Source: a virus
Virus record (IMG/VR): IMGVR_UViG_3300049933_000058
Span: 1 to 46,452 of that record
Length of the DNA: 46,452 nucleotides
Reading direction: 5' to 3' (one strand)
Made by a program: the position numbers and the translations under genes. Within the stretch, counting starts at the first letter, position 1. Every line of letters starts with the position of its first letter. This document shows positions 17,580 through 35,047 of the stretch, one piece after another. The notes under the pieces were generated by a model. The model searched no databases and was not told the DNA's origin. It was given only the letters and a program-made list of their open reading frames with translations.

Positions 17580-17616
17580 TGAGTGTTATAACAATGTCAC
17601 AGGAGCGTAAAGACGT

Positions 17617-18060
17617 ATGCCAAACCTAAAACCACTGACTAAACAACGCTGGGTTATCACCGTTAACGGTGGTGCTACTAGCCTTGTGTTTGATAAACTG
17701 ACCGGAGCCGGTGCCGAGTGGAGTCAAACCGACTTCAACGACGGGGTGACAGGGCAAACCAAGGTTGCTCTAGGCTTCCTTAAGAACGCCAACGTCACGC
17801 TCTCAAAGACTGCTGACGAAGAGACCGACACTGCTCTCAGAGACTGGCTTAAGACCCAGTTAAGCAATGGTAACACCCCTTTCGATATGTCTTATCAAGC
17901 GGTGAGCGTCAATAAAGCAGGAGACCCGGTAGCTAGCTATGCACCTATTACCTGTACACAATGTACTATAGCCAGGGTGAAATACCCAGAGGTAGAGCGG
18001 ACATCCTCAGACCTCGCTATGTGGGAAGTAGAAGTCGTCGTTAACGGCGACATCATCTAA
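17617..18060 (+). CDS. Tail tube protein
   Basis: 147 aa, immediately after the sheath gene. Confidence 0.65.
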   Translation: MPNLKPLTKQRWVITVNGGATSLVFDKLTGAGAEWSQTDFNDGVTGQTKVALGFLKNANVTLSKTADEETDTALRDWLKTQLSNGNTPFDMSYQAVSVNKAGDPVASYAPITCTQCTIARVKYPEVERTSSDLAMWEVEVVVNGDII

Positions 18061-18094
18061 CCTGTTATCACAATACTATAGAAGGACTAGAGCA

Positions 18095-18379
18095 ATGTTA
18101 TCACAAGAGTATCAACCGAAAGTCAATGAGAAGAGGCAAGTTGTAGGGGTGCTACCAGGGGGTGTGGAGTATTGCCTTCGCCCTCCTACCAACCGAGACC
18201 TAATAGCCATTGAACAATGGGCTTTAGAGTCAGGCAGTAACATTGATAAACAGCTTCATATCTTCAGCCATCTAACCTCCCCCCGTATCAGTTACGAGGT
18301 ATTGCTAGACCTGGAAGGCGAGTCTATGGAGGTGATGGGAGCAGCCCTTGACCTCTTTCCAGTTTTCAGTAAGGTTTGA
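18095..18379 (+). CDS. Tail assembly chaperone (gpE/gpG-like)
   Basis: 94 aa, between the tube and tape measure genes. Confidence 0.55.
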   Translation: MLSQEYQPKVNEKRQVVGVLPGGVEYCLRPPTNRDLIAIEQWALESGSNIDKQLHIFSHLTSPRISYEVLLDLEGESMEVMGAALDLFPVFSKV

Positions 18380-18566
18380 CGGTGAGGTTTGGTTTGAGTT
18401 AGAGGGTAGGAGTTTCACCAGAGACTCCTTACAACGCGCTCTAGTCTACGCTAATAAGGGTGTTATAACAACCACCCTTTTTTCTAATATCCCCCTATGG
18501 CAACTTATAGAAGTCCTAGAGTTCAGCTCTGAGTATTACTCGGAGTGTTATAACAATGAGCTATGA
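18348..18566 (+). CDS. Overlapping downstream frame of the tail chaperone (frameshift extension or separate small gene)
   Basis: It overlaps the previous ORF by 32 nt in the +1 frame and ends at the tape measure start. Confidence 0.45.
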   Translation: MTSFQFSVRFDGEVWFELEGRSFTRDSLQRALVYANKGVITTTLFSNIPLWQLIEVLEFSSEYYSECYNNEL

Positions 18567-20352
18567 TAATACAGTTAGTTTTCTATTCACGGCGACCGAC
18601 CGCGTAACCCGTACTGTCAACAACATCAAGAGCAGTATATCAGGTCTGACTGGTAGCGCTGCCCCTGGTGGTGTTGGCGGTGTGGCGGCTTCCTTCCTGG
18701 GTAACTTAGGCAGTAGCGCTGTGTTGGGTGGCATATCCCTTGCTACTCAGGGTATACAGAGAATGACCGGTGCTATGAATGACGCCGTATCAGCTCAAAC
18801 TGCCTTCATCACTACTGCATCAGGTCTTGGTAACTCCCTAGGAGTGCCTATGAAAGAGTCTAAAGCTCTACTGGAGACCCTACAGAAGGACTTAAGCACG
18901 GTAGCAGCAGTGCTACCGGGTGAAAATAAAGACTACCTAGCCGTGTTAAATATGCTCTCTGACACTGTTGCAACAGGGTTTAAGGGGGATATAGAGGGCT
19001 TTAAGGGTGCTATCCTAGACATAACCAAGAGGACAGCAGCGCTCGGTAGCACTATACCGGGTCTGTCCGGTGAAGCCTCAGGGCAGACTATGGAGATGCT
19101 CATGAATGGTAACACCCTCACAAGCCTCAAACGTCTAGACCTATTCCAAAAGAATGCACCCCTTAAAAACGCTTTAGAGCGTGAGATGAAGGCAGCTAAC
19201 CTAGAGGATAAGAACTGGACAAGGGCGACCTTAAAACAGCGTATAGCGGTCATACAGAAGGCGTTAAAAGCCACTGCCACTGATGAACTGTTCAGCGAGT
19301 TTCAAGACACGGCTGAGTCATTGATGCAGGGCATGAAGAACGCTATCTTTGATATGCAAACCGGCGTGTTCGGGTTTATGAGGAGAGTGGGTAGCCGTGA
19401 AGACCGAACTGTGCTAGATGCCTTCACCGAAGTATTGAAGCGTATCAGAACACTGGGCAGTGCCGGCAATAGGTTGGCGAGGGCGTTAGGCTTCTCCTTT
19501 GACCCTATGGAGACGCTCATAGACGTTATGGATGGTGTTAATAACTTCCTAGGTAACATTGCCTACCAGTTGGATATAAGCCCCCCAGAACTCGCTGTGA
19601 GCAACGTTATAGGCTTTATTGGTGAATGGGTCTCAGGTATGTTTAGCAAGGCTGTGGAGGGTGTCAAAGGCTTAGATAGCAGCTTTCTAGGTAAGGGCGT
19701 AGATATGATAGGACACTTTGTAGGTAATATTAACTGGACAACTGTCGGGAGACTACTTGGCAACACTGTGTGGAAGATGCTTATCGGGCTTGTGAGAGCT
19801 ATACCAAACGTCGCTATAACCGTAGGTAAAATAGCTGTAGGGCTTGTCCAGATAGTATCTGGGTTTGTCATAGGTGTTGTGGAAGGTATAGGCCAAAGCC
19901 TTTACAACCTATTTCTTAAACCCATAGTTGACTTCTTTAACCGAATGCGCGCTTGGTGGGATAAGCTCAAGTCATCTATGCCCAACCTGGGTGGTGTCGG
20001 TAACGCTGTGCAAGCGGTTGCTAACGTTGTCACAAACCCTGTAGGAGCTGCTATAAACCTAGGTAAGAAAGTATTAGGGATAGGTGATAACAAAGACAAA
20101 CCGCTCGCCCCCGGTCAGCCCCCGGTTAACGCGGATAAGGTGAATGCTGCCAACAAGGTAGCCAGCCCTATCAAACCGGTGGAACCGGTTAAGACAGTAC
20201 AGAAGACAGCCTCTAACAACACTCAGACCAACACCATCGCTGGGTTGACCATAAACGCGGCTAACGCCGGCACCCCTCAGGAGATAGCCAGCGTCGTTAT
20301 TGAAGAGTTAAACCGCCAACTCAACTTCAAAGTAGCTCAGCAACTAGCCTAG
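18556..20352 (+). CDS. Tape measure protein
   Basis: 598 aa, Gly/Ala-rich with hydrophobic segments, after the chaperone pair. Confidence 0.75.
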   Translation: MSYDNTVSFLFTATDRVTRTVNNIKSSISGLTGSAAPGGVGGVAASFLGNLGSSAVLGGISLATQGIQRMTGAMNDAVSAQTAFITTASGLGNSLGVPMKESKALLETLQKDLSTVAAVLPGENKDYLAVLNMLSDTVATGFKGDIEGFKGAILDITKRTAALGSTIPGLSGEASGQTMEMLMNGNTLTSLKRLDLFQKNAPLKNALEREMKAANLEDKNWTRATLKQRIAVIQKALKATATDELFSEFQDTAESLMQGMKNAIFDMQTGVFGFMRRVGSREDRTVLDAFTEVLKRIRTLGSAGNRLARALGFSFDPMETLIDVMDGVNNFLGNIAYQLDISPPELAVSNVIGFIGEWVSGMFSKAVEGVKGLDSSFLGKGVDMIGHFVGNINWTTVGRLLGNTVWKMLIGLVRAIPNVAITVGKIAVGLVQIVSGFVIGVVEGIGQSLYNLFLKPIVDFFNRMRAWWDKLKSSMPNLGGVGNAVQAVANVVTNPVGAAINLGKKVLGIGDNKDKPLAPGQPPVNADKVNAANKVASPIKPVEPVKTVQKTASNNTQTNTIAGLTINAANAGTPQEIASVVIEELNRQLNFKVAQQLA

Positions 20353-20564
20353 AGTATTTGTGATAACGCCACCACGTCACATCGTTCACCACTCTTACTT
20401 CCGATGACAACCGCCGCGTAGCCTTTGCCACGTTCTACCACACCTTGGTAATGGTTATTAACAAAGTATTCAGCCCTATAAACGCTCTCAGAATACTTTA
20501 ACCACTGTCCAAAGGTCACACGGCAGGGTAACACTGCCGGTACAAACTCTGTTAAACTAGACAT
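20349..20564 (-). CDS. Hypothetical protein
   Basis: 71-aa ORF. Confidence 0.4.
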   Translation of the reverse strand: MSSLTEFVPAVLPCRVTFGQWLKYSESVYRAEYFVNNHYQGVVERGKGYAAVVIGSKSGERCDVVALSQIL

Positions 20565-20607
20565 AGACTTTAAGTCCTCTACTTTCCTTCCTCTCTATCA
20601 TAACACT

Positions 20608-20796
20608 ATGACTAGACTTCAACCATCAGACTTAACTATCGGTAACGTCTACACCATCATATTTCCTAATAAGAGGGTAGCCACGGCTGAATACAGCAGT
20701 AATGAGGGTAACGCACTATGCTTTACCCTCACTGATGGTTATGTTGCAACAATACCACTAGATGGGTGGCGATACTGGGGTGTTGAAACTTTCTAG
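20608..20796 (+). CDS. Hypothetical protein
   Basis: 62-aa ORF. Confidence 0.4.
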   Translation: MTRLQPSDLTIGNVYTIIFPNKRVATAEYSSNEGNALCFTLTDGYVATIPLDGWRYWGVETF

Positions 20797-21077
20797 GTGA
20801 GCAGTGGCATAAGTACCTTGTTGGCTTTAGGTATTGGTGTGACTTCTACCATCTCATAGCCTTCTAGGTTTAAACAGGCAGCATAGAGGTCAAGGTTAGT
20901 GGTGTTGTAAGGGTCTCCTAGAGTATGCCCATAGTAACCCTGACTCATTGATAATGCATTCAAGGTATAAACATCCAAAGGTTCATACTCAGGTTCTACC
21001 AACTTATCAGGCTCATTGTGTGGTGTTGTGATAACAATATTAAGGAGGTTATCAAGGCGTTGAATATTTATGACCAT
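20793..21077 (-). CDS. Small protein coupled to the HExxH protein (immunity/inhibitor candidate)
   Basis: 94 aa. Its start overlaps the end of 21068..22270. Confidence 0.5.
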   Translation of the reverse strand: MVINIQRLDNLLNIVITTPHNEPDKLVEPEYEPLDVYTLNALSMSQGYYGHTLGDPYNTTNLDLYAACLNLEGYEMVEVTPIPKANKVLMPLLT

Positions 21078-22270
21078 TGGTTTATTAGTGTTCCTACGGT
21101 GAAGTGGTATAAGTCAGGGTCTTGACGGTAGAGCGTTGCCATGTTTTTAGAGGTGGTAAAGTCCTGTAAACCCATAGATGTTACTTCTGTCCCTACCTCC
21201 TTGAAACCGTTGTTATAAACTTTACCTATATATGGTGAATGGTATTTGCCAGGCAATGCTAGCTCATCTTCGCTATAACCCTCCATCCGTTCGGGTTTAA
21301 GTGAGAAAGCTCTATCATTACGCCATGAGATAGCAGCATCAAGCTGCTTACGGTTGTCTTCTTCCCAAGCGTGACCCGCCTCATGATAGGTTACAGTCCT
21401 ACTATAAAAAGACTTATCACCTACATTAAAGTAACCATCGTCTGTGTTAAAGTAAGGTCTATCTTTTTTGTAGCCTATTGTTTTAATAATGCCGTTACCC
21501 GACGTTAACTCATACAAGTCGGCAATATCTTTTTTAACTTTGGCTGCATACTCATTATCGAGGTTGTCAACCTTAACCTTGCTAGCTAACACCTCAGCCT
21601 CAGAACGGCTAATACGGCTATTAGCTCTTAGGTTACTTAGCAAAGTCTCATGAGCTGCTGACTCTAGCTCAAGTTGTTTAGAATACGCCTCATCTTTCTC
21701 CTTTACCTTTTTAGCTAGTTTGTTTATTAGTTTCTGTCTCTCCTCAGGCGTCCTAGCTGTTGCTACTCTCTTCAATAAGGCGTTACCCTCTTCCTTTAAC
21801 TTATCGACCCTGGCTGATAACTCCACCACCTTTGGGTCTGTTTTTATAAACTGTTCTGTATATGCCTTCCCAGCCCTTACAAACTCCTTAGAGCTGTATG
21901 CCTTCGGCTTGTCTACCACTTTCTTATACCGAACTTGTGATAACAAGTTCTCCTTCCATGAGTCTTTACGGTTTCTATAGCTGGTAGGTTGGCTCACCCC
22001 TGCCTTATTGGTTAACTTCCTTAGGTCTGATAAGTTCATCTTATCCAGTTCCTTGGTCAGCTCTCCCAAACTCTTAGAGGTTAGACCCTTACTATTAAGC
22101 AGGCTAACTAACTTAGTAGCCTGCTTTGATGAGAGTTCCTTCTCTATTCGCTTACGTTCTTTGCCAACGTTATGTTTAACCTGTACTGCTTTCGCGCCCG
22201 GTGTCCCCTTGCTAGCAAACCTCCCTTTGGCGTCTCTATAATATGTTCTAGTTACCGTCTTCCCAGCCAT
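21068..22270 (-). CDS. Modular protein: basic/coiled-coil N-terminus shared with 22568..24010, plus a C-terminal HExxH zincin-like domain
   Basis: Carries TVTYHEAGHAWEED. Its N-terminal RDAKGRFASKG ... KERKRIEKELSSKQ parallels RKGNGQFNGS ... RERDRIKAELSQEQ in the paralogue. Confidence 0.6.
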   Translation of the reverse strand: MAGKTVTRTYYRDAKGRFASKGTPGAKAVQVKHNVGKERKRIEKELSSKQATKLVSLLNSKGLTSKSLGELTKELDKMNLSDLRKLTNKAGVSQPTSYRNRKDSWKENLLSQVRYKKVVDKPKAYSSKEFVRAGKAYTEQFIKTDPKVVELSARVDKLKEEGNALLKRVATARTPEERQKLINKLAKKVKEKDEAYSKQLELESAAHETLLSNLRANSRISRSEAEVLASKVKVDNLDNEYAAKVKKDIADLYELTSGNGIIKTIGYKKDRPYFNTDDGYFNVGDKSFYSRTVTYHEAGHAWEEDNRKQLDAAISWRNDRAFSLKPERMEGYSEDELALPGKYHSPYIGKVYNNGFKEVGTEVTSMGLQDFTTSKNMATLYRQDPDLYHFTVGTLINQWS

Positions 22271-22303
22271 GTTAAAACAAAGTGTCTATAACGGGGGACT
22301 GTG

Positions 22304-22564
22304 TTAACTAGGTTCATCTAGTTGGGCAATGTCTATCTGGGCATCGTCAGACTGGTCTGCCCAGTTAAACTCGGCTTCTGAACCATCTGAGAAAGTGATG
22401 AGAAACCTAGCGTTACCCAAGTCGTTAACAGGGTCAAAGTCTAACATCCGGTAAGAACCGTCTGAGGCCACACCGTCATTATAAAGGATAACCGGGGCAT
22501 CCTCATCCAACTTTGTAGTGTCAACTTCTACCTGGTTTCCAGACTGGTCTACTAACGTTAACAT
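22304..22564 (-). CDS. Small acidic protein following the LHH-motif protein (immunity/inhibitor candidate)
   Basis: 86 aa, D/E-rich, starting 4 nt after the stop of 22568..24010. Confidence 0.5.
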   Translation of the reverse strand: MLTLVDQSGNQVEVDTTKLDEDAPVILYNDGVASDGSYRMLDFDPVNDLGNARFLITFSDGSEAEFNWADQSDDAQIDIAQLDEPS

Positions 22565-22567
22565 ATT

Positions 22568-24010
22568 TTACTTACTCGCTCTTAGTACTTTATTATTCAT
22601 TATACTGTTAAACTCATCAGGAGTCAACTCACCTCGCCTCAGGCGTCGGTTCACCTCACCGGCTACGGCGTGAGCGTTCTGCCGGTGCCATTCACCCCAA
22701 TAACTATCCCTCACGTCGTTATGATACTCTCTACCCTCAGTTAGACCATACTCAGAACCACTCTTAGACTTGTCTGGTAACCCAAACTTCACAACCTCAC
22801 CCGTATCAGGGTGTATCCCCTTGGGGTGGTTTAAGTCATAATAGTGTGGCGAGGTTAGGTCATGCAACCCACCCGGTAACACTACATAGGCGCGCTCCTT
22901 CTGGCTAGCAGCAGCTATCTCATACTTACCGTGGGGCGTCGGTCTCAACAGTTCTCTTGACTGTGCCTTAGCCTCCTCCAGGCTTATCTCGCCAGCTTCA
23001 TACTTCTTAACAATGCTGTCCAATGGCACCTTAGCCCATTGGTTAATGTGGTGAAGCTGTGCCTGCCCGTACTGACCAGGCTTGCCCATTCTACTCTCGT
23101 CAGGCAGTCTACCCCAAGAGTTAGCGTTCCAATAGGGTGCTGGCGCTTTCAGCCCCTTGTCATGGTTTTCCACAAACCTCATAGCTGTAGCTAACTCACC
23201 TATTAGCTGCTCATTATTTAGGTTACGGCTTATTTTAACATTGTTTGGCACACCTAAAACCGTTTCACCCTTGTGTATCATAACACTCCGGTTACGGTTT
23301 AAACTTTCACCACCAACCTCATAGTTATACTCCTTCTTACCTCTAAAGGTAGTATCTTTGTATTGGCCGTAGGTCTTACCCTCCCATATCCTAAGACGCT
23401 TACCCTCTACCTTAAATGAGCCTTCTTCTATGGGTGCCCTGTCAGGTTTATTCGCTTTAAGCCTTGCCTCTGTGGCTACAAGGGGTAACAACTCAGCCTC
23501 ACCAAATGCCAACGGTTTACCAGCGTTGAACTTCTTCTGAGCCTTTCTAGCTAGGCTCATCAGTTTCTTATCTGCCTTCTGGGTCTTAAACTGCTCATTT
23601 AGTTGGATAGCAGTCTTCTGTTGCTTCTCTAGGATACGCAGGTTAAAGGCGTCTAACGGGTCAGTAGTGCCCTTCCTAGCGGCTTCCTTCATCTTCTTCT
23701 TAAGTGCTGTAACCTCTTTCTTTAGGTTCCTAGCCTGTTCACCATACTTAAGAGAGCGCGGGGCTGACGGTTTAGCCAGCACACCCCCCAACCTTTTACG
23801 TTGCTCCTGTGACAACTCAGCCTTTATCCTGTCTCTCTCCCTAGCCACTTTAACAGCACCTAACACACTGCTGGAGGCCGACTTAGCGCCATTCTTCCGG
23901 GACACCTTAGCTGTTTTCCCTGACCCTACAGAGCCATTAAACTGTCCGTTACCCTTCCTTAAGTACTTCGCAGCTTCTTTAACCTTACTCCTAGATACAT
24001 TCTTAGGCAC
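22568..24010 (-). CDS. Modular protein: shared basic N-terminus plus a C-terminal LHH-motif region (possible HNH/EndoVII-fold nuclease)
   Basis: AQLHHINQW followed by LPGGLHDLTSPHYYDLNHPKG. GTG start per the ORF track. Confidence 0.5.
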   Translation of the reverse strand: MPKNVSRSKVKEAAKYLRKGNGQFNGSVGSGKTAKVSRKNGAKSASSSVLGAVKVARERDRIKAELSQEQRKRLGGVLAKPSAPRSLKYGEQARNLKKEVTALKKKMKEAARKGTTDPLDAFNLRILEKQQKTAIQLNEQFKTQKADKKLMSLARKAQKKFNAGKPLAFGEAELLPLVATEARLKANKPDRAPIEEGSFKVEGKRLRIWEGKTYGQYKDTTFRGKKEYNYEVGGESLNRNRSVMIHKGETVLGVPNNVKISRNLNNEQLIGELATAMRFVENHDKGLKAPAPYWNANSWGRLPDESRMGKPGQYGQAQLHHINQWAKVPLDSIVKKYEAGEISLEEAKAQSRELLRPTPHGKYEIAAASQKERAYVVLPGGLHDLTSPHYYDLNHPKGIHPDTGEVVKFGLPDKSKSGSEYGLTEGREYHNDVRDSYWGEWHRQNAHAVAGEVNRRLRRGELTPDEFNSIMNNKVLRASK

Positions 24011-24030
24011 TACTGACTCACTATAAACTA

Positions 24031-24039
24031 TGTTATAAT
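24031..24039 (+). promoter_or_regulatory. Extended -10 promoter TGtTATAAT
   Basis: TGTTATAAT lies 27 nt upstream of ATG 24066. Confidence 0.5.
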
Positions 24040-24065
24040 GAGACTATGTCTAGCTTTAACCTCCT

Positions 24066-24287
24066 ATGCAAGTCTTGGTTACCTCTATCTACTCTGACCC
24101 TGCAAGCCCTCAGGGTGATATTTACGTTGTTACTCATAATAGTGACCACCACCCAAACCCCATGAGCATTAAAGCTGAGGCACCTTTACAACGTGGCGCT
24201 CGCTACGATGTTACATTGCCCCACCCAGCCATTTGTCAGCGTCTCTACGATGGTAACCACTACCCTGTTGCAACAAACATACAATGA
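24066..24287 (+). CDS. Hypothetical protein
   Basis: 73-aa ORF after the promoter. No clear RBS. Confidence 0.4.
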   Translation: MQVLVTSIYSDPASPQGDIYVVTHNSDHHPNPMSIKAEAPLQRGARYDVTLPHPAICQRLYDGNHYPVATNIQ

Positions 24288-24514
24288 TAAAACATTACCT
24301 ATTAACCCAACCTCTTGTTACAGCAGAGTTACTCGCCGCGTCCAATGCCGTAGAACTGCCATTCAGGCTTGTTACAGGTGATGACTTCCTAGGAAGTGAT
24401 AAAGTCCTATACAGTTAAAACCTGCTTAGTCACCTCTTTCAACGGAGAGACCGTTATTGTCACGTACCTCCAAACAGTCAAATAACTCTGTTATCACAAT
24501 GACACAGTAGTACT

Positions 24515-24539
24515 AACCCACCCTTGAGGGTGGGTTTTT
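24515..24539 (+). terminator. Intrinsic terminator
   Basis: AACCCACCC-TTGA-GGGTGGGTT followed by TTTTT. Confidence 0.8.
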
Positions 24540-24547
24540 AATAGGGG

Positions 24548-24576
24548 TTGCAACTTTTGGAGAAAGGTGTTATATT
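24548..24576 (+). promoter_or_regulatory. Promoter of RNA A
   Basis: TTGCAA, a 17-nt spacer, then TGtTATATT. Its AAGGTGTTATAnT context is shared with loci B and C. Confidence 0.7.
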
Positions 24577-24582
24577 AGAGAA

Positions 24583-24899
24583 GTGGTGAGAGAGCCACAG
24601 TGGTGTGATAGGTCAGAGTTTGCGAACACCCTTCGGGGTTACTAACCACTCAGGCTATGCTGCTAAGGCTCTCAAACCGTAAACCAAACCTGGCTTCTAA
24701 CTGGTGGGGACATCAGACTGAGGCCAACAACGACACTACCAAGTCTCTAACAAGGTAACAAACAGCACACAGCTTCAATGGAGACAAGTCTCCTGCCTGA
24801 TATGAAGTGTTAGTGGCACTCATAGTAGCCCTAAAGTCACCCGTCCTGATGAGTCAGGCCAAAGGGATAGGTGATAGAGGGGCACCGCTATGGGTTAAC
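24583..24899 (+). ncRNA. Candidate structured RNA A (about 320 nt), fused at its 3' end to tRNA-Ile
   Basis: No credible ORF. The first ~90 nt align with RNA B. A C(UUCG)G hairpin lies at 24628-24639. The RNA ends at the mature 5' end of the tRNA. Ends are approximate. Confidence 0.6.
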
Positions 24900-24972
24900 G
24901 GTACTATGGCTCAATGGTTAGAGCAGCTTCCTTATAAGAGGTTGGTTATGGGTTCGAGTCCCATTAGTACCA
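24900..24972 (+). tRNA. tRNA-Ile, anticodon UAU (reads AUA)
   Basis: Hand fold: GGTACTA-TG-GCTC-AATGGTTA-GAGC-A-GCTTC-CTTATAA-GAGGT-TGGTT-ATGGG-TTCGAGT-CCCAT-TAGTACC-A. Total 73 nt, with a 7-bp acceptor stem and a canonical T loop. Confidence 0.85.
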
Positions 24973-25001
24973 CTCTGTTATCACAATACTACGACCACCA
25001 T

Positions 25002-25023
25002 CCCACTATAACAAGTGGGTTTT
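25002..25023 (+). terminator. Hairpin plus T-run after the tRNA
   Basis: CCCACT-ATAACA-AGTGGG followed by TTTT. Confidence 0.5.
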
Positions 25024-25028
25024 ACTGT

Positions 25029-25478
25029 ATGAAATATGACTCTAACCTGTTCTTTATCACCGCTCTCAGAAGTCGCATCTCTGTTATAACAAATGCTGCA
25101 TTGGCACTAACCTGTGTGATAACAGGTACACTGACTGAGGCTGAGGTACCTAAAAGGGTGCTGTACGGTGTGGCAATGGCTAGTAGCTTCAATGGACTCT
25201 TAGCCTTAAAGTCTCAGGAGGCTCACCAGAAGGCTCAGGAGGACGTTGCTGATATCAGTGACCAAGTTAGGACTAACGACATCTACCAGCGGTTACAGGG
25301 TCATGGAGAGGGTACTGACTTATCAGGGCAAGTCTATAACTATCTTGTAGACCAGTCAGGGCAGGGTAAAACCAAGGATGAGATGCTCAGGTCACTTCAC
25401 ACAGACCGTGCCAAAGCCCTACAACTTTGGCTAGAGCTAGAGCAACGCTATGGCAAAATACCCACAGGAGACTTCTAA
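25029..25478 (+). CDS. Hypothetical membrane-associated protein
   Basis: The ORF track gives 24807..25478, which runs through the tRNA. I truncate it to ATG 25029 (MKYDSNLFFITAL...). The N-terminus has hydrophobic segments. Confidence 0.55.
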   Translation: MKYDSNLFFITALRSRISVITNAALALTCVITGTLTEAEVPKRVLYGVAMASSFNGLLALKSQEAHQKAQEDVADISDQVRTNDIYQRLQGHGEGTDLSGQVYNYLVDQSGQGKTKDEMLRSLHTDRAKALQLWLELEQRYGKIPTGDF

Positions 25479-25500
25479 CTCTGTTATAACAAAGTAATGT

Positions 25501-25536
25501 AACCCTCCCTAGCTAGTATAAGGAGGGTTATTTATT
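25501..25536 (+). terminator. Intrinsic terminator
   Basis: AACCCTCC ... GGAGGGTT followed by ATTTATT. Confidence 0.6.
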
Positions 25537-25598
25537 GGCGTAGGTCTCTGTTTACACTCACCCACTTTATGGTGTCAGCACTATAGTACTGTTAACAC

Positions 25599-25793
25599 TT
25601 AGTGAGGTGGTAGTGTTGGCAGGTCTTTGAGCATTAGTTTACCAACCAACTCAGTGTATAGGGTGACCGTGATGAGGTGTTGCTCAAACAGTTCTATTAA
25701 CACTGCTTTAGTCTGGTCTGGTGACATATCCCTGACCATCAGTTTAAAAGACTCTAGAGTTAGTTGCTTCTCTAGCGGTAACTCGGTAGTCAT
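25599..25793 (-). CDS. nblA: NblA-like phycobilisome degradation protein
   Basis: ELPLEKQLTLESFKLMVRDMSPDQTKAVLIELFEQHLITVTLYTELV aligns with the NblA pattern (Anabaena NblA as I recall it: ELSLEQQFSIRSFATQVQNMSHDQAKDFLVKLYEQMVVREATYQELL). Length 64 aa. Confidence 0.75.
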   Translation of the reverse strand: MTTELPLEKQLTLESFKLMVRDMSPDQTKAVLIELFEQHLITVTLYTELVGKLMLKDLPTLPPH

Positions 25794-25894
25794 TGGTTAA
25801 CTCCACTCACTAAGTGTTAACACGAGATGGTGTCACCCTCTAAAGCATTACCACCAACACTTCCACCAAAGTGGTGTCACTTTGTGTGAGTGTG

Positions 25895-26104
25895 TTAGAT
25901 AATGGTGTTGCCAGGTTTGAACCTGTAGAACTCATCCTCAGGAACGTTGGTGGTAAGCTCTCCTCGAAACCAACACCCAAACGGCAAGGTGTTATCACAA
26001 TGTACCCAGTGTTTAATGGGTGGGGTACCGTCCTCTCTATCTTGCTCTAAGAGGTATTTAGCTTCAGGGCATCCAGGGTCTATGGTCAATACTCTATATT
26101 TCAT
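25895..26104 (-). CDS. Hypothetical protein
   Basis: 69-aa ORF. Its ATG directly abuts a TGTTATAACA copy. Confidence 0.5.
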   Translation of the reverse strand: MKYRVLTIDPGCPEAKYLLEQDREDGTPPIKHWVHCDNTLPFGCWFRGELTTNVPEDEFYRFKPGNTII

Positions 26105-26111
26105 TGTTATA

Positions 26112-26138
26112 ACAAAGCCCTCTGCTCTAGAGAGGGCT
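26112..26138 (-). terminator. Hairpin between the capsid gene and the next gene
   Basis: 8-bp stem AGCCCTCT / AGAGGGCT, flanked on both sides by motif copies (26105, 26156). The T-run is weak. Confidence 0.45.
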
Positions 26139-26170
26139 GAGAGTGCTTATTAACTTGTTATCACAAGGTA

Positions 26171-27208
26171 TTAGGGTGTCCCTAAGTCTGTAATAATACC
26201 TAGTTGTTTGCGGTTGTGGTACTGCAACTGTGGCATAACATACATTTCAAAGTTGTATACCGCTGAGTTGTTGCTCGGTAACTGTGCCATATAGAGGACA
26301 AACCCTCCTAGACGGGTTGCAGCAACTATCTTAGCCTGTGGGGTCATTGCTGACATCTGCCCCTGACCTTGGAAAAGGAAGCTGTAGAGCTTCATATAAC
26401 CCGTGTTCAGAAACAACATAGTGTCACTAGGACACTGAGGGTCAACCACCATCTCTCTACCCATGTAGGAGAACTCACCACGACCTAGGTCTACGTTGGC
26501 GTCTTTCATCTCGCCACCGGAGTAGCCCACTAGCTTATCAAACTCAGCACCGTATAGGCGTTTGATAGCAGGGCTGATGATAACTAGGTCAAAGGATACT
26601 TCGTTTAAGTAGAGTGACTCCTCAAACTCATCCAGGATGGCTCTTGTCAAGGGTCGGTTAGTACCGGCGTTACCCAGGATAACCCCCGGTTTCCACACAG
26701 GGTACGTTGCTGGGTTAATAGTGGCATAGGTAGCGGCTGGGTCACATATGAGGTTCAGCCCTGCAATGCCTGACTCCGCACTGCCACCAGACTGGATACC
26801 ATTACCCGTGTATAGACGGTTGTTGAGCTTACGGCGTATCTCCCTGATGGAGTTGTCTATCTCTACGTTGAGAATGCGCGCTAAGTCTTCCGGCGCTCGG
26901 TTGTAGGCTTCACTGATGCTTACCGCATCAACTTGGAAGCGTCTATAGATACGACGTTTACCGATACGTAACTCGGCATTGATAGCATCATCGGAAGCTG
27001 TGATAGTGGTGTCTTCAACCACAGCACCTTCACCCACTGCGGTACCGTCTATTTCCACGTCCCACCCGATAAAAGTATCACTTTTATCGATAACTTCAAT
27101 ACGGTCTGTGAGGGCATCAAAGGTAGGTGCCATCTCTTTCTGAGTCTTGGCTACCCTATCGTCTAACACCTTGTTTAGCACCGGGTCGCCGAGGTTAAGA
27201 ATAGTCAT
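26171..27208 (-). CDS. Major capsid protein (putative)
   Basis: 345 aa, directly downstream of a scaffold-like gene. Called from size and position only. Confidence 0.6.
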   Translation of the reverse strand: MTILNLGDPVLNKVLDDRVAKTQKEMAPTFDALTDRIEVIDKSDTFIGWDVEIDGTAVGEGAVVEDTTITASDDAINAELRIGKRRIYRRFQVDAVSISEAYNRAPEDLARILNVEIDNSIREIRRKLNNRLYTGNGIQSGGSAESGIAGLNLICDPAATYATINPATYPVWKPGVILGNAGTNRPLTRAILDEFEESLYLNEVSFDLVIISPAIKRLYGAEFDKLVGYSGGEMKDANVDLGRGEFSYMGREMVVDPQCPSDTMLFLNTGYMKLYSFLFQGQGQMSAMTPQAKIVAATRLGGFVLYMAQLPSNNSAVYNFEMYVMPQLQYHNRKQLGIITDLGTP

Positions 27209-27283
27209 TATTTCTCCGAAATAATAATAGGTTTATAAAGTCTCTACACATTGAGACCGTGCTGTAATAGGGTGCAAGCCCTA

Positions 27284-27838
27284 TTAACCCAAACCAAATA
27301 AGCGCTTCACCGCGTCCTGTGTGTTGCCCGTGTTTTGTTGGCGGGGTTGTTGACTGGGTTGTGTACCTGTCCCAAACTGCCCTGTAGGTGCCTTTAACAG
27401 GTGTTGACCGAAAGGTGTGGCAAAGAAAGCATCTACCCGTTCCTGTAGGGTCTTACCATCTTTAGAGAGCCATTTACCTTCTACCAAGTCCATGTCAGAA
27501 GCCATCAGTCCCTTCACAATGTTTTCGGTCTCAACAGGGAAGGCTAGTTGATAACGAGTTAACTCTGCTTTAAACGAGTTATCATAGTTTTGTTGACGCG
27601 CTGTTTTAGCCTCTAACTCCGCCTTTTCGGCCAGTTGTTTCTCTAGCTGGGCAATACGCTGTGTTAGGGTGCTGGCCGGTGTTTCAGGTTCCGTAGTGGT
27701 TGGTTGGGTTGTAGCTTTTAACCGTGCTTCCACCTGTTCCATAACAGCGTCTGAGAAGCCTTTAAACATTGCTTGGAGGTCTCCAGCATCCGGTTGTTCT
27801 GGCTGTTCAGGTTGTTGTTGTTGTTGGTCTTCAGACAT
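27284..27838 (-). CDS. Scaffolding protein (putative)
   Basis: 184 aa with a Q/E/P-rich N-terminus and a coiled-coil-like centre (LAEKAELEAKTARQQ), upstream of the capsid gene. Confidence 0.5.
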   Translation of the reverse strand: MSEDQQQQQPEQPEQPDAGDLQAMFKGFSDAVMEQVEARLKATTQPTTTEPETPASTLTQRIAQLEKQLAEKAELEAKTARQQNYDNSFKAELTRYQLAFPVETENIVKGLMASDMDLVEGKWLSKDGKTLQERVDAFFATPFGQHLLKAPTGQFGTGTQPSQQPRQQNTGNTQDAVKRLFGLG

Positions 27839-27841
27839 TAG

Positions 27842-27850
27842 TGTTATAAT
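27842..27850 (+). promoter_or_regulatory. Extended -10 promoter TGtTATAAT
   Basis: Diverges from the scaffold gene, 29 nt upstream of ATG 27879. Confidence 0.5.
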
Positions 27851-27878
27851 GTTAGTGTATTCAATAAGGGACGCTGTT

Positions 27879-28064
27879 ATGGTTATCTATACCTACACAA
27901 TACCTAACCAGTGGAAGACTAAAGTACAGTCTTTGAAACCAGGCTTAACTCGTTATATCCGCTATGGTGACACCTACCAAGCCACTAACGAAGCAGGTTT
28001 GAGAGAGTTAGTGGCTCTCTACAGACAATGTGGTAAAGAGGTTGAAACGGGTTACCTAGAGTGA
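27879..28064 (+). CDS. Hypothetical protein (61 aa)
   Basis: Internal ATG of ORF 27669..28064. The upstream part of that ORF is antisense to the scaffold gene. Confidence 0.45.
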   Translation: MVIYTYTIPNQWKTKVQSLKPGLTRYIRYGDTYQATNEAGLRELVALYRQCGKEVETGYLE

Positions 28065-28096
28065 CACCATCCCTAGTTAAACACTAGGGAGACTAG

Positions 28097-28813
28097 ATGG
28101 AAGCTACACTAACCAACATTAAGAAGCCTGAGGAGGTCATTACTTTTAAGGTGCCACCCCAGAAGATAAACCGAAGCTTCCAGTCCGAATATACGAAGCT
28201 GTCGGTATTAGCCACAGCACAGCCTTTACTCTGGTATCAGAACAGTGTTACAACACTGTCTTTACCAGGGTTATTGCTGTTTGGTGAGGGTACTGGAAAG
28301 GACATAGCACTACTTGAGCAGTGGACTAAACCCATTGAAGGCGAACTCGAACCGCCTACGCTTAAGTTTAACTTTGCCCATATTGACTTACCGCGAGTCA
28401 AACTAGAGTCAGCAGAAGTTGTAGAAGATATGTGGGTAGGCGGTGCCAGCCCTACCCGCGCTGAGGTGTCCCTCTCTCTCCTACTCTACCCTGAACCTCC
28501 CGTTGTTAAGACCGCTCCAATACCTAAACCCGAAGGGACTAACGTTAAGCTCTCGCCACCGGAGCGGTTGAAATATATACAGGAGGTGTTGAAGAAGGTT
28601 AAGGCAGACCCTAAATATAAATACAAACAGGGTGACGTGGTGGCTATAACGGATGTCAATAGGGTGACTCTTAATGATAAGGATATAGGGGCGTTAACGG
28701 ACTTTGTTACTCTAGATAAGAAGCATACACCCCCTACGGCAAAGGAGGCACCTAAAACGGCACCCCCTACTAAGCCTGACGTTCAAACTGGTAAGTCATC
28801 ATCCAAGGTCTGA
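28097..28813 (+). CDS. Tube-fold baseplate/hub protein (tube initiator-like, contractile injection system family), tentative
   Basis: ITFKVPPQKINRSFQSEY ... LSLPGLLLFGEG ... PPTLKFNF ... SPTRAEVSLSL resembles the conserved N-terminal tube-like domain. Confidence 0.4.
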   Translation: MEATLTNIKKPEEVITFKVPPQKINRSFQSEYTKLSVLATAQPLLWYQNSVTTLSLPGLLLFGEGTGKDIALLEQWTKPIEGELEPPTLKFNFAHIDLPRVKLESAEVVEDMWVGGASPTRAEVSLSLLLYPEPPVVKTAPIPKPEGTNVKLSPPERLKYIQEVLKKVKADPKYKYKQGDVVAITDVNRVTLNDKDIGALTDFVTLDKKHTPPTAKEAPKTAPPTKPDVQTGKSSSKV

Positions 28814-29245
28814 TGAGTCATCCTCTTCTAAGACTTCAAATAGTGGTAACCTATTCTGGGGTATACCCGTTTGGTAAGACCTAACCTCAATGAGTAGGCC
28901 ACGGATGAGTTTAAGTTTAGAGTCCATCCTGCCAAGGGTTTGGGCTGTCTTTACATCTTCTTCGCCTATATGTTTTATCGTGTCGTTGAGCTTCTCTTGA
29001 ACAACACTATTAGCCCTTGTACTTTGTGATAACGTATCCAAGAGGTCATTGTGACGTTTAATAAAGCCAGCTATAGACTTACGGGAGAACCACCAAACCA
29101 AGATAATGGCAAAGATGACCGCCGTAGAGCCTTGGGCTACCTTATCCAACATAGACCAAGCTAGACTGTTTAAGTCACGGGGGACAGGTTGAGTTTCAAT
29201 GACAGTAACAGTGTTAGGGGTGTTTATTTGTGGCATTGTTGGCAA
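28799..29245 (-). CDS. Single-pass membrane protein with a coiled-coil tail
   Basis: TM segment STAVIFAIILVWWF. Confidence 0.5.
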   Translation of the reverse strand: MPTMPQINTPNTVTVIETQPVPRDLNSLAWSMLDKVAQGSTAVIFAIILVWWFSRKSIAGFIKRHNDLLDTLSQSTRANSVVQEKLNDTIKHIGEEDVKTAQTLGRMDSKLKLIRGLLIEVRSYQTGIPQNRLPLFEVLEEDDSSDLG

Positions 29246-29549
29246 TATCCTTTATACTGCTTATAAGCTTGTTGCAACGGGTTATGTCTCCTTGAGTAAA
29301 ATGGTATGTTAACTCAAGCATGTTGGCTAGTAGCTCGTTACCTATAAGCCCCCGGAGTTTCTGGATATCCCCTTCCTCAAACTTACTTAAAGTAGGGGCT
29401 GTAACAACAGGTATCTCAGGGTTGTCTGGGGGTTTAATAGGGTCTACCGGGCTATCAGGGGGTGTCTCAGACATTGTATAGCCCTGTGGCAGCTCTACCC
29501 ATATCTCCGACGTTCCTACAAAAGAGCCTTCATAGTAGATATAAAACAT
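29214..29549 (-). CDS. Hypothetical protein downstream of the fiber gene (fiber chaperone candidate)
   Basis: 111-aa ORF starting 5 nt after the fiber gene stop. Confidence 0.5.
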   Translation of the reverse strand: MFYIYYEGSFVGTSEIWVELPQGYTMSETPPDSPVDPIKPPDNPEIPVVTAPTLSKFEEGDIQKLRGLIGNELLANMLELTYHFTQGDITRCNKLISSIKDIANNATNKHP

Positions 29550-29553
29550 ATTC

Positions 29554-31023
29554 TTAACCTAAAGGTACAAAGTTACGAAGTGTTAAGGTGCCTGCTACTG
29601 CTGCCAGAGGTGTTGCTATGACGTTGGTGTTAACAATGCTTTGAGCCCAACGTCCGCCTAAGGTACTAAAGGAAGCACCTTGACCGGAAGGTGACCGTAT
29701 GGTGGCAGCACCTGCCAAGGGTATAGTCCAAACACCACTACCATCTACCGTGGCACCTTGGTTAACCTGTATACTCGAACCGAACAGTCCTGCATCCAGC
29801 CTTAGAGTAGCCCCGGTTAAGTTATAGTTAGGTGATGTAATAGCTATAACACCCCCTGAACCAGGGTAACCCCCACCTGCCCATGACTTATCAACGTTGG
29901 ATACAGTGTTACCACCGTTACCGCCCCTGACATCAACGGTGCCTGTGAAGTTAACACCGGCTAGTGAGGATAACCCTACAAACCCCCCACTGCCACCGGA
30001 AGACCCATAGATAACACAGGAAGTACCTACCGCTAAGAACCCTGGTGTGGTGTTTGTAGGGCTTCCTGTATAGGAGTAACCCGCGCTACCATCTGAACCC
30101 TTACAGCTTATGGTACCACTACCAGAGATAATACCCGCAGCTTCGATACTAACACCGCCACCACCTTTACCACCCGCGGCAGTCCTTACAAAGGTTGAAG
30201 TATTATACGTCAGTGTTTCACCTGACAGTCCACCACTACCATAGGGTTGTATACCCCATCCATACACGTCACCTCCACTACCCAGACCTCCTCCTCTCTG
30301 ACTACCTTGTGATAACAGGGCAATGTGAGCAAAGGCTAAGGATGAACCACCACTGCTGAGTGGGTTGACTAATAGTGTGCCATCTATAACGACGTTTCTA
30401 GAGGCGTGAAGGCGTAACCACCCCGGAACAGTAACTTGAACCCCGGAGGGTATAATGAAGTCTCTACAGTGTATCAGGCCGCTTGTGAGGTCTGTATTGA
30501 TGTCACAGATAATGTCTGTGTTATTCACACCCCCGAAAGACCTAATAGAGGCAGCACGGGGTACAATAGACCTTATACCTATGTTCCTCAGGTCTGATAC
30601 GCTACTTATAGAGCCACCGCTAGTGACAACCCTGGCTATAGGGTAGCAAACCACAGGCAAGGATGTGCTATGAGTTATGACACCAGATAGGTCTATATGA
30701 ACAAAACTAGTGGTGTTGTTAGGTAATGTTAGGTTAACAGAGGTCTTACTAACCAGTGAACCATCTGTTAATGCTACGACACCAGAACCTACATTTACTG
30801 TTAAACCTGATACTATTGTTGTAACAAAGGCATTTAGTACCGATGCCACTCGTGCTTTAATGGCGGAGGTGTCGTCACTCAACTGTGTGTCTGTGATACC
30901 CGGATGGTTACCGAGCAACGACTGGTCTAAACTGTCACCAAACTGCTGATGATAAGCGAGATAAGCTACCTCTGGTGTGAATATCTGACCGTCTACGAAA
31001 GGGACATCGGGGAAAGTAGTCAT
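29554..31023 (-). CDS. Tail fiber / receptor-binding protein (Gly-rich)
   Basis: 489 aa with Gly/Ser-rich repeats (GGGLGSGGDVYG, GGKGGGG). Adjacent to the collar-domain fiber gene. Confidence 0.55.
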   Translation of the reverse strand: MTTFPDVPFVDGQIFTPEVAYLAYHQQFGDSLDQSLLGNHPGITDTQLSDDTSAIKARVASVLNAFVTTIVSGLTVNVGSGVVALTDGSLVSKTSVNLTLPNNTTSFVHIDLSGVITHSTSLPVVCYPIARVVTSGGSISSVSDLRNIGIRSIVPRAASIRSFGGVNNTDIICDINTDLTSGLIHCRDFIIPSGVQVTVPGWLRLHASRNVVIDGTLLVNPLSSGGSSLAFAHIALLSQGSQRGGGLGSGGDVYGWGIQPYGSGGLSGETLTYNTSTFVRTAAGGKGGGGVSIEAAGIISGSGTISCKGSDGSAGYSYTGSPTNTTPGFLAVGTSCVIYGSSGGSGGFVGLSSLAGVNFTGTVDVRGGNGGNTVSNVDKSWAGGGYPGSGGVIAITSPNYNLTGATLRLDAGLFGSSIQVNQGATVDGSGVWTIPLAGAATIRSPSGQGASFSTLGGRWAQSIVNTNVIATPLAAVAGTLTLRNFVPLG

Positions 31024-31027
31024 GTTA

Positions 31028-32446
31028 TCACACTCCTGTGTATATTATAGAGTTAAGACCTAAATAAGGCGGTAGGTTAGGGTGTGGCAGACCACCACCT
31101 GTATTAGCTATAGCTCCCAAACCATCAGCGGAAGCTGTTCTATTACCAGCAATATTAGTCAGACCACCAGTTGGTGCTATGTTGGTATGAGCTATAGCAC
31201 CATACCCACTCCCAAAAGACTCACCTATACCCGTTACGTTGAAACCGTGCACTGAGATGTTATGGCGGTGAGAGGGTATTTGAGTGCTATCCAACGTCAC
31301 TGTAGCAGCCCCGCCACCACTGGCCAACAACACCCCCGGCGCTCTATTAGCATTAACACCACCCATACCATCAGGTGTTAACATGAACCGACCCCTAAGG
31401 TCAGGTATCCTAAAAGTCCCTGCTGCCTCACCACCGGTGTTATAAGTTGTGCCTAACGCTGCAAACAGAGTGGCATAAGTAGTTTGTGATAACACTCTAC
31501 CATCACAGAAGACCCAACCCGTGGGCGCTGATAATAAAGCTGTTGTGACAATAGTACCAACAGGTATTAATGCTTTAGATACAGTAGTGATAAGGTTTTG
31601 AACCCATGCCGTAGTAGGTATCTGAGAACTGCTATCACTTTGTGTGGGACTTGTAGCTCTTGTAGGAGTACCTAAAAAGTTAGGACTAGTTAGTGGCGCT
31701 AACCCCGCTACTGTAGAAGCTAAGGCATATTGCTGTAAAGCATCATATACTGCGTTACGGGAGGGCGCATCTAGTTGCCCATCCCAGCCAGCATCTAACG
31801 GGCTATTATTACCAGTTGTCCCCGCCCCGATATCACCCTTTGACGCTATTTGTTGCCAGTGGGTTGTAATGTTTGGCAGAGTGCCCTGAGACCTATCAGG
31901 ATAATAGTAGAGATAACTCCCCCCACCCCAGTTTACAACGTCCCCTCTGCTATACCATGCCAATGGGTCATAAGCACCCCTAGAGACGAATAAGTTTTGT
32001 TGCAACCTTGCCCAAAATGTATCTTCATTATAAAGGCGTCTGACTAACGCCGAGATGGCGGTGTCTAAGTTGTCTCTGTTAATACCCGACTGCTTAGCTA
32101 GTTGGTTAAAGGATATAGGCGTCAGACTTGCAGGTACCCTGGCATAAAACTTTGGTATCAGCGGAAAGTCTGACGTTGTTATAACAGGTTCACCTGTATC
32201 AGGGTCTGATGTGGTAACCGCGTCATAGTAGTAAACCTCAAAGGAATAGGTTACATAGTCCGCGTCAGAGGTCTCTAGAAGGAGGTTACAAGCACCATTA
32301 ACAAACTCCACACGCCCCGTCAGGTTGGTGATGCTCTGGGCTTCTGTGTCTTTCATTAGCCATGAGTCTACCCCTACCAGGATATAACCTGACAACGGGG
32401 CACCTATGCTGTTTCTGAAGTCACAAGCTATTGTGGTCTTTGGCAT
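31028..32446 (-). CDS. Tail fiber protein with phage tail collar domain
   Basis: PTGWVFCDGRVLSQTTYATLFAALGTTYNTGGEAAGTFRIPDLRGRF matches the tail collar domain pattern. Confidence 0.7.
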   Translation of the reverse strand: MPKTTIACDFRNSIGAPLSGYILVGVDSWLMKDTEAQSITNLTGRVEFVNGACNLLLETSDADYVTYSFEVYYYDAVTTSDPDTGEPVITTSDFPLIPKFYARVPASLTPISFNQLAKQSGINRDNLDTAISALVRRLYNEDTFWARLQQNLFVSRGAYDPLAWYSRGDVVNWGGGSYLYYYPDRSQGTLPNITTHWQQIASKGDIGAGTTGNNSPLDAGWDGQLDAPSRNAVYDALQQYALASTVAGLAPLTSPNFLGTPTRATSPTQSDSSSQIPTTAWVQNLITTVSKALIPVGTIVTTALLSAPTGWVFCDGRVLSQTTYATLFAALGTTYNTGGEAAGTFRIPDLRGRFMLTPDGMGGVNANRAPGVLLASGGGAATVTLDSTQIPSHRHNISVHGFNVTGIGESFGSGYGAIAHTNIAPTGGLTNIAGNRTASADGLGAIANTGGGLPHPNLPPYLGLNSIIYTGV

Positions 32447-32465
32447 TGTTAACTAAAGCGGTATA

Positions 32466-32474
32466 TGCTATAAT
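32466..32474 (+). promoter_or_regulatory. Extended -10 promoter TGcTATAAT
   Basis: 27 nt upstream of ATG 32501. Confidence 0.5.
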
Positions 32475-32500
32475 GGGACTATGTTATTAGGGTATATAGT

Positions 32501-32707
32501 ATGGATGATGTATCAGCACAACTTATACAAGAGTTTGAGCAGCGCTTAGCCACTGCCACGGAATATTCACAACGTCACGCCAGAAAGTTTGCTCAGCAGT
32601 CTGTAGCTAAAGCTGTAGAGTATCTTAAGTTATGTGAAGCTGGCCAGAGACACCGAACGTCGGTTCTGGTAGACCCTCACTACAGCTTCCAACCGCCTAT
32701 CGGTTGA
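32501..32707 (+). CDS. Hypothetical protein
   Basis: 68-aa ORF. Confidence 0.45.
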   Translation: MDDVSAQLIQEFEQRLATATEYSQRHARKFAQQSVAKAVEYLKLCEAGQRHRTSVLVDPHYSFQPPIG

Positions 32708-33089
32708 TATGCCCACTGACGATGACTGTGAAGTATAAGGCGTCACGGTCATCTAGGTAACGGAACTCAGCCGCTCTACCTGAATATTTACCATCTGAGC
32801 CCTTAACAGCATTAATAAGGTAACGACCACGCGTTAACAGAGTGTCTGGGTATTTAAACCTAGGCACTTCTTTTATTTGGTAGTCTGTCGCCAACACCTT
32901 AATAGACGCTGTGTTGAACTGCTCTAGCTGCTGTGGTGTCACCCTCACCAACTCCGGTGTAGGCACTATCAACACCTGTTCCCCCGTTGGTGATAACAAT
33001 ACTACATCTAACCTACGGGGGTCTCCAAACTTGGTGTGAAGTGCCCCTAGCTTATAAGTCTTATTGGCTATTTTGGGTATAAGTTTCAT
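32697..33089 (-). CDS. Hypothetical protein, likely a head-tail joining or tail completion component
   Basis: 130 aa, directly downstream of the gp10-like gene. Confidence 0.5.
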   Translation of the reverse strand: MKLIPKIANKTYKLGALHTKFGDPRRLDVVLLSPTGEQVLIVPTPELVRVTPQQLEQFNTASIKVLATDYQIKEVPRFKYPDTLLTRGRYLINAVKGSDGKYSGRAAEFRYLDDRDALYFTVIVSGHINR

Positions 33090-33101
33090 AGAGCCTTGTT
33101 A

Positions 33102-33449
33102 TCACGTCTTGATAGCATTGTAACCAACCCGCCTTAGATAGTAGTCCTTAACCCTTGGTGCAACCGCTGTCGCCATAGGTCTTGCCCTCATGAACCGGGT
33201 GCCATACTCTACAAACCCGGCGTAGGGCGTCTTGTTGGATAGGGTGAGTGAGTTCAAGTTATCCGTCACCACCCAGTTAGAAGCCAGTCTACCAGTCCTC
33301 ACCGGTGTTGCTGCTCTTAGTTGCTCCTCAGCGTAAGCCTTAGCCTCTAGCGCTGCTCTCCTCATCACAGGTCTAAGGCCGTCTAACACATTACTGTTGA
33401 GCTTTATCTTTACATCTACGGTAAGACCAACACTTCGCTTCTTAGCCAC
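33102..33449 (-). CDS. HK97 gp10-like head-tail connector protein
   Basis: TPVRTGRLASNW ... YAGFVEYGTRFMRARP fits the HK97 gp10 family pattern. Confidence 0.55.
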   Translation of the reverse strand: MAKKRSVGLTVDVKIKLNSNVLDGLRPVMRRAALEAKAYAEEQLRAATPVRTGRLASNWVVTDNLNSLTLSNKTPYAGFVEYGTRFMRARPMATAVAPRVKDYYLRRVGYNAIKT

Positions 33450-33557: not shown

Positions 33558-33563
33558 AAAGGA

Positions 33564-35043: not shown

Positions 35044-35047
35044 AACT

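Follow-up and report, generated by a model that had tools for sequence, protein, structure and literature searches.

The tRNA-Ile(UAU) gene and the RNA that precedes it

The window analysed in this work, a complete virus record of 46,452 bp with direct terminal repeats, carries a tRNA-Ile(UAU) gene of the class I elongator type directly behind a long non-coding RNA (Table 1). In the whole window, ARAGORN called a single gene, tRNA-Ile(TAT) at 24900-24973 (+), and the Rfam family RF00005 matched 24900-24972 with 68.5 bits (gathering score 29; E 5.8e-13). The anticodon TAT (24933-24935) sits in a canonical C-U-UAU-A-A loop of 7 nt (U33, A37, A38); the discriminator base is A73, and the gene does not include CCA. 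The initial annotation had named UAU as the anticodon of the only canonical tRNA; both programs agree with it, and the anticodon is unchanged by formal calling. Position 34 is a T in this tRNA and in its counterpart in the related phage L002, not the C34 of a lysidine tRNA-Ile2 that serves as TilS substrate. Between the two phages, 21 of 21 stem pairs are kept with three two-sided and three one-sided changes, and the anticodon loops are identical. Because of these compensatory changes, we consider that the fold has been under long-term selection.

The body of the tRNA is nearest to other phage tRNAs (score 52-54) and reaches a score of 28-35 of 73 against cyanobacterial Ile2-type CAU tRNAs, a dissimilarity that led us to reject its derivation from the host Ile2 by a C34U change. 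E. coli IleRS reportedly recognizes the body determinants C4-G69, U12-A23 and C29-G41, in work attributed to Nureki (1994). The window tRNA has U12-A23, an A-U pair at 4-69 and a U-G pair at 29-41 (C-G in L002); cyanobacterial Ile2-type tRNAs likewise depart from the E. coli identity pairs. A function as initiator tRNA for ATA starts was discarded, as G1-C72 is paired and the three G-C pairs closing the anticodon stem are missing. No set of genes needing an ATA start was found in the window, nearly all candidates with a Shine-Dalgarno sequence plus ATA having an ATG or GTG nearby or upstream. An ORF spanning the tRNA (24807-25478) was also dismissed, since it is not conserved in L002. On the antisense strand, 24900-24973 (-) matches the Rfam family 'Plastid-ycf2 5UTR' (RF04354) with 36.8 bits, under its cut-off; the consensus of that family resembles the reverse complement of a CAU tRNA.

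Table 1. Features of the window and their positions
Feature	Position	Strand	Basis or remark
Absence of AATT, GATC, AATC, GATT	1..46452	.	Word counts; Ile after a purine has to be ATA
Minihelix (acceptor and T arm) at the end of paralogous RNA C	13153..13192	-	Internal control
Putative sigma70-type promoter, extended -10 (TTGCAA-17-TG.TATATT)	24548..24576	+	Consensus match only; conserved in L002
~320-nt RNA, no conserved reading frame	24583..24899	+	Abuts tRNA 5' end; own 5' end placed from the promoter
tRNA-Ile(UAU), class I elongator type	24900..24972	+	ARAGORN, Rfam; stem pairs kept in L002
TGTKATMACA motif copy	24976..24985	+	Immediately 3' of tRNA
Hairpin resembling an intrinsic terminator, with T run, at the end of the transcript	25002..25027	+	Similar number expected by chance
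nblA gene	25599..25793	-	Pfam PF04485, E 8e-9; points to a cyanobacterial host
tRNA-like end of paralogous RNA B	34069..34126	+	Acceptor and T arm, no canonical anticodon loop; internal control

The predicted promoter probably starts a transcript that holds both the RNA and the tRNA. The RNA locus is 77% identical between the window and L002 over 425 nt, and in both phages the tRNA adjoins the conserved RNA without a spacer. In the window, L002, L023 and G438, paralogous RNAs terminate with tRNA-like elements that lack a canonical anticodon loop, and ARAGORN and Rfam made no call at the end of RNA B. RNA processing would be the role common to these ends. The intact D arm and anticodon of the tRNA are taken to reflect an additional role, because RNAs B and C keep just the acceptor and T arm. 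Further long non-coding stretches with degenerate tRNA-like ends occur in L164:1500-1900 (-) (G438, distant), in L023:10250-10620 (-) and in L179 near 18159 (-). A second call in L002, 'tRNA-Ile(GAT)', has a non-canonical loop and was reclassified as a tRNA-like end. Upstream of the tRNA, an AUA-sensing leader peptide M-S-Q-A-K-G-I(ATA) was discounted, having no Shine-Dalgarno sequence and, by eye, a frame that shifts between the window and L002. A CTGATGAG block (24846-24864), kept in L002, resembles half a hammerhead core and is followed by CAAA, not GAAA; Rfam gave no ribozyme match there.

The window encodes terminase, portal, major capsid, tail sheath and baseplate proteins. Its polymerase is of the Pol-gamma-like type, as in the cyanophages A-HIS1/2, Mic1 and S-TIM5, and the terminases nearest to its own belong to Leptolyngbya, Microcystis and Nostoc phages. 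On account of the structural genes, the polymerase, NblA and the nearest terminases, the virus is assigned by its gene content to the cyanomyoviruses. For the host species, a 20-kb DNA search against 401 cyanobacterial genomes matched tRNAs only, and sensitivity for spacers was poor.

Missing RATY words and isoleucine codon usage

The four words covered by RATY (AATT, GATC, AATC and GATT) each occur zero times in the window, against ~300 expected under a Markov model and 825 from base composition, and in its genes AAT and GAT never precede a pyrimidine. This loss presumably reflects restriction avoidance, or defence evasion more broadly. A literature search on RATY, on AATT/GATC avoidance by cyanophages and on phage Ile(UAU) tRNAs combined with site avoidance, which covered few subscription journals, returned nothing direct. 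GGWCC, CCCGGG, CAGCTG, AGGCCT and GACGTC are likewise at zero in the window, GWGCWC and GCAGCC/GGCTGC are low, and GGCC and TGCG/CGCA stand at 21% and 39% of expectation, respectively. The window also encodes a DndC-like PP-loop protein (14187-15179, -) with conserved RWCT and GCxxCP motifs, which is found at varying positions in close relatives; none was found in the Pol-gamma relatives G001, G006, G423, G436 and G438. We considered this protein as a phage U34 modifier and rejected it (E 8e-17 for DndC versus 3e-5 for TilS; homologues annotated as DndC/PAPS reductase). Its closer resemblance to DndC than to TilS makes a DNA-related role likelier, and a part in DNA modification is possible.

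Isoleucine codons were tabulated mainly from 43 hand-picked genes of the window. After a codon ending in A or G, all 134 of them are ATA, with neither ATT nor ATC, whereas after C or T the counts are 137 ATA, 149 ATT and 162 ATC, that is 31% ATA among 448 (Fisher p 2e-55). An automatic ORF set agrees (ATA in 128 of 128 cases after a purine and in 131 of 421 after a pyrimidine), and ATA makes up 47% of all isoleucine codons of the window. The initial statements that ATT and ATC do not follow a codon-final A or G and that ATA is visibly frequent are thus borne out. The stronger wording that isoleucine there must be ATA describes the 134 of 134 cases correctly, but only after Met, Trp, Lys, Glu or Gln (64 of 271 ATA codons) is there strictly no alternative to it; elsewhere, the preceding codon can switch to a pyrimidine ending. 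A purine precedes 23% of isoleucine codons versus 48% of all codons. Simply removing the forbidden states, with ATA cost-free, would give 22%, nearly the observed share. The phage therefore also dodges the ban through a pyrimidine-ending previous codon or another residue. With 23 ATA per 1000 codons against ~15 if all isoleucines used the free-context pattern, about one-third of the ATA load is due to the RATY ban. GTG-ATA-ACA, one of the examples first given for frequent ATA, belongs mostly to an iterated TGTKATMACA motif (16 of 21 plus-strand copies). This motif has 64 copies genome-wide with 13 in-frame ATA codons, and it was rejected as the cause of the excess, as dropping these 13 codons alters nothing.

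Codon usage was compared with samples of 20-40 kb from each of 15 cyanobacterial genomes, which serve as proxies for the real host. In these samples, ATA accounts for 3-19% of isoleucine codons (pooled 12%), and the window over-uses it 1.7- to 13-fold relative to these proxy hosts. ATA is within the top five over-used codons in 13 of the 15 comparisons and ranks second (2.9x) after AGG (4.6x) in the pooled data. The window lies above all 15 samples, so that an ATA usage no higher than in the host, which had been named as the outcome speaking against the initial proposal, does not hold for these proxies. A codon-compensating tRNA should read a codon that is over-used relative to the host, which is what we find for ATA against the same proxy hosts. 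No Arg(CCU) tRNA was found in the window despite AGG being the top over-used codon, and CGA is rare (5% of arginine codons). The sheath, tube, capsid and scaffold genes (16128-18060 and 26171-27838) contain only 2 ATA among 41 free-context isoleucine codons (p 5e-5), versus ~33% in other genes. As these four abundant virion genes shun free ATA, AUA still looks costly in highly expressed genes.

Relatives and candidate hosts

Members of the phage family have lost different words. The window, L002 and an Antarctic-type clade ban all RATY words and G001 nearly does so, whereas the others ban AATT only (G423, G436, G438), GATC only (G006, Lbo402-yong5), AATT and GATC (L003), AATT and AATC/GATT (L004, G003, L027, L072) or GATC and AATC/GATT (L076, G421). 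Altogether, the three components of RATY are avoided in at least six combinations (window; L003, L004, L020, L027, L072, L076, L178, L166-L177, L021). Such mixed losses of AATT, GATC and AATC/GATT point to several separate host specificities rather than to one RATY enzyme. ATA is forced only if one of the palindromes has disappeared in addition to AATC/GATT. Within the family, Ile(UAU) tRNAs were seen only in three forced genomes, namely the window, L002 and L027. The L002/L179 phage (87% capsid identity to the window, 40 kb seen, RATY 0) has its tRNA-Ile(TAT) at the matching place, where none was found in L003 or L025; L003, a close relative, keeps AATC/GATT and uses 29% ATA. The distant L027, without AATT and AATC/GATT, carries adjoining tRNA-Ile(UAU) and Arg(CCU) genes (2526-2615 and 2672-2743), which read exactly ATA and AGG, the two codons most over-used in the pooled comparison of the window with cyanobacteria. 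Its tRNA-Ile(UAU) has a long variable-arm hairpin with a UA-GAU-AG loop, an arm that the window tRNA lacks. Because the bodies of the two tRNAs differ, the L027 gene is best read as an independent gain, making two acquisitions in the family.

The association of the tRNA with forced ATA is weak. It was present in 3 of 4 forced genomes versus 0 of 5 near-complete relatives that are not forced to use ATA (p 0.048; counting the two close relatives once raises this to 0.11), a contrast inflated by the fact that a fragment suffices for a positive and a full genome is needed for a negative. No tRNA was seen in five further fragments of the forced type. After a pyrimidine, the odds ratios of ATA versus GTA are 1.06, 1.00 and 0.98 in the three tRNA-bearing genomes, compared with 0.14-0.83 in six near-complete tRNA-less relatives and 0.07-0.49 in cyanobacteria. 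This lost penalty on ATA is however not diagnostic of the tRNA, because fragments ~88% like G001 show odds ratios of 1.0-1.25, with RATY almost absent and 46-53% ATA; no tRNA was seen in these fragments, which cover 33 of the 40 kb of G001. G001 itself (complete, 40 kb; AATT 0, AATC/GATT 2, GATC 23) uses 21 ATA per 1000 codons and no tRNA was found in it, and G438 reaches 44% ATA with neither forcing nor tRNA. Hence, neither the ATA load nor the lost penalty requires the gene. In the Leptolyngbya phage Lbo402-yong5 (L021), GATC is at 0 versus 262 expected, ATA makes up 5% of isoleucine codons and no tRNA was found. Outside the family, a UAU-tRNA pattern run on IMG/VR yielded an Ile(TAT) gene in 77 of 80 loci fetched among the matches listed, i.e. 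at least 77 unrelated viral loci, and none of these 77 showed a forcing word ban. Ile(UAU) tRNAs are thus common in phages without such a ban, and the type is ordinary.

E. coli IleRS (Trp905) prefers LAU to UAU 360-fold (PMC3575796, Table 1), and organisms relying on a UAU tRNA have Arg or Lys in place of W905 (PMC3575796; B. subtilis, PMC3919564). The five cyanobacterial IleRS inspected end in KCDRCW, the Trp version is present in 52 of 53 genomes matching the motif (confirmed as ileS in five only), and the five IleRS do not carry the Arg or Lys. By analogy, the host IleRS is likely of the type that charges UAU poorly. A second motif, KCDRC-Arg-NY, was noticed at G108:C1:1383139 and G090:C29:9866, in genomes that also have the Trp version. 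No aminoacyl synthetase was found encoded in the phage. TilS is present in 5 of 5 cyanobacterial genomes tested, and a strict pattern retrieved Ile(UAU) genes in 4 of 401 sampled cyanobacterial genomes, one of them on a contig of 67% GC that may be contamination. Strong transcription or a modified U34 could offset slow charging, and in B. subtilis a tRNA-Ile whose U34 is unmodified is able to read AUA and seldom misreads AUG (PMC3919564).

Role of the tRNA and comparison with known systems

Our evaluation tips, by a little, towards an elongator tRNA-Ile(UAU) that reads AUA without lysidine and thereby supplements phage decoding of an over-used codon. Expression, processing, charging and decoding are here predicted from sequence, along the following lines. 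The tRNA would form the 3' end of a longer phage transcript, from which host RNase P and a 3' nuclease would release it, and the host would add CCA. The host IleRS would then charge it, probably inefficiently, and the charged tRNA would read AUA without TilS or lysidine, adding to the host's single lysidine-type AUA reader. Carrying the gene would pay off since AUA is far commoner in the phage than in cyanobacteria, with about two-thirds of the AUA load ascribed to base composition without selection against AUA and about one-third to the RATY ban. The initial annotation had proposed that the tRNA pays the translational cost of RATY avoidance. This view survives in part, as UAU tRNAs appear within the family only where ATA is forced, but the ban explains only about a third of the load and the G001 clade does without a tRNA. 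The tRNA would be a helpful supplement and an optional one, not a required fix, because the nearly RATY-free G001 and its clade carry similar ATA loads without it. A longer chain, in which defence evasion forced AUA and at least two lineages then gained UAU tRNAs that are charged despite a Trp-type IleRS, appears tentative and on balance doubtful; the charging route may involve U34 modification, body determinants or, in L027, the second GAU hairpin.

The arrangement of the locus also fits a tRNA that is mainly a processing tag, where an RNase P cut makes the 3' end of the ~320-nt RNA and the match between anticodon and ATA is incidental. That the tRNA directly abuts a conserved RNA in both phages speaks for it, as do the tRNA-like ends of the paralogous RNAs of the window, L002, L023 and G438, the Trp-type IleRS of the likely host and the RATY-free relatives that manage without any tRNA. 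We nevertheless hold it unlikely as the main role, since the D arm, the anticodon stem and the exact C-U-UAU-A-A loop were kept at ~28% divergence while the other ends lost the canonical loop, although a loop match of 7/7 at such divergence is by itself merely suggestive, and L027 gained an unrelated UAU tRNA. The two functions are moreover compatible and do not exclude each other. Most likely, the tRNA both supplements AUA decoding and marks the end of the upstream RNA, a reading to which we give about half of our confidence.

Distinctly less probable, in our opinion, is a counter-defence function in which the tRNA replaces the host lysidine tRNA-Ile2 when the latter is cut or inactivated, or when TilS activity drops. 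An AUA-dependent phage would be very exposed to losing that one host tRNA, and the foreign body of the U34 tRNA, nearest to other phage tRNAs and unlike the cyanobacterial Ile2-type CAU tRNAs, could let it evade the host enzyme. Compensation for anticodon nucleases is one proposed role of phage tRNAs (PMC10264068), a Synechococcus reportedly becomes phage-resistant when tRNA expression is lost (PMC11726456), and the patchy distribution among relatives fits a host-specific pressure. However, none of the candidate hosts yielded an Ile2-specific nuclease or toxin, and the codon data need no such function to be explained. Very unlikely, finally, is a mostly uncharged tRNA acting as decoy or regulator by binding IleRS, a nuclease or a sensor, or else a passenger recently captured from the phage tRNA pool. 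It would accord with the Trp-type IleRS (PMC3575796), the unencoded CCA, the lack of the extra GAU-bearing hairpin of L027 and the abundant virion genes that still shun ATA. Yet the compensatory changes indicate that the fold has long been selected, slow charging could be made up for by a strong phage promoter, and E. coli kinetics may not transfer to hosts whose Ile2-type tRNAs deviate from the identity pairs known from E. coli.

The purpose of phage tRNAs is debated between codon compensation and counter-defence, and this family offers an unusually clean test, with one tRNA, one codon whose use is set in part by a sequence rule that is known, and relatives that differ in their banned words and exist with and without the tRNA. 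It also poses a concrete biochemical question, namely how a UAU tRNA is charged where the host IleRS has the U34-disfavouring Trp. If the tRNA proves uncharged, many 'Ile(UAU)' annotations in phages would need another explanation; if the proposed chain is true, it runs directly from defence evasion to codon forcing and tRNA acquisition.

TilS-independent tRNA-Ile and phage codon supplementation are both already known in kind; for a link between a phage Ile(UAU) tRNA and motif avoidance, no paper was found in a search covering few subscription journals. The TilS-independent tRNA-Ile(UAU) of Mycoplasma mobile and the U34 suppressor of B. subtilis (PMC3575796, PMC3919564) share UAU, A37-A38, A73 and the class I cloverleaf with the window tRNA, which is predicted to read AUA without lysidine as they do. 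Unlike them, it is phage-borne, and its likely host has TilS and an IleRS that carries Trp at the site where those organisms have Arg. Closer to the phage setting are Cyanothece PCC 7424 and Ferrimonas, which hold a redundant tRNA-Ile(TAT) beside tilS and a Trp-type IleRS; the Cyanothece tRNA was suspected by the authors to be a poor substrate (PMC3575796). In contrast to these, the carrier studied here has a strong, measurable AUA demand. With respect to restriction-site avoidance shaping phage codon usage, the portion of a review used here (PMC8410138) likewise presents short words fully lost in a lytic dsDNA phage, with codon-pair effects. That portion describes no tRNA gained in response, and our phage family differs from the case presented there in avoiding the RATY components in different combinations. 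Finally, Latilactobacillus curvatus prophages (PMC10688831) bear Ile(CAU/UAU) tRNAs with ~16% ATA in the phage versus 4% in the host, compared with 47% versus ~12% (proxy hosts) here. The present system is distinguished from these prophages by an excess that is partly forced by a tetranucleotide ban, not by base composition, and by a tRNA that is fused to a long non-coding RNA.
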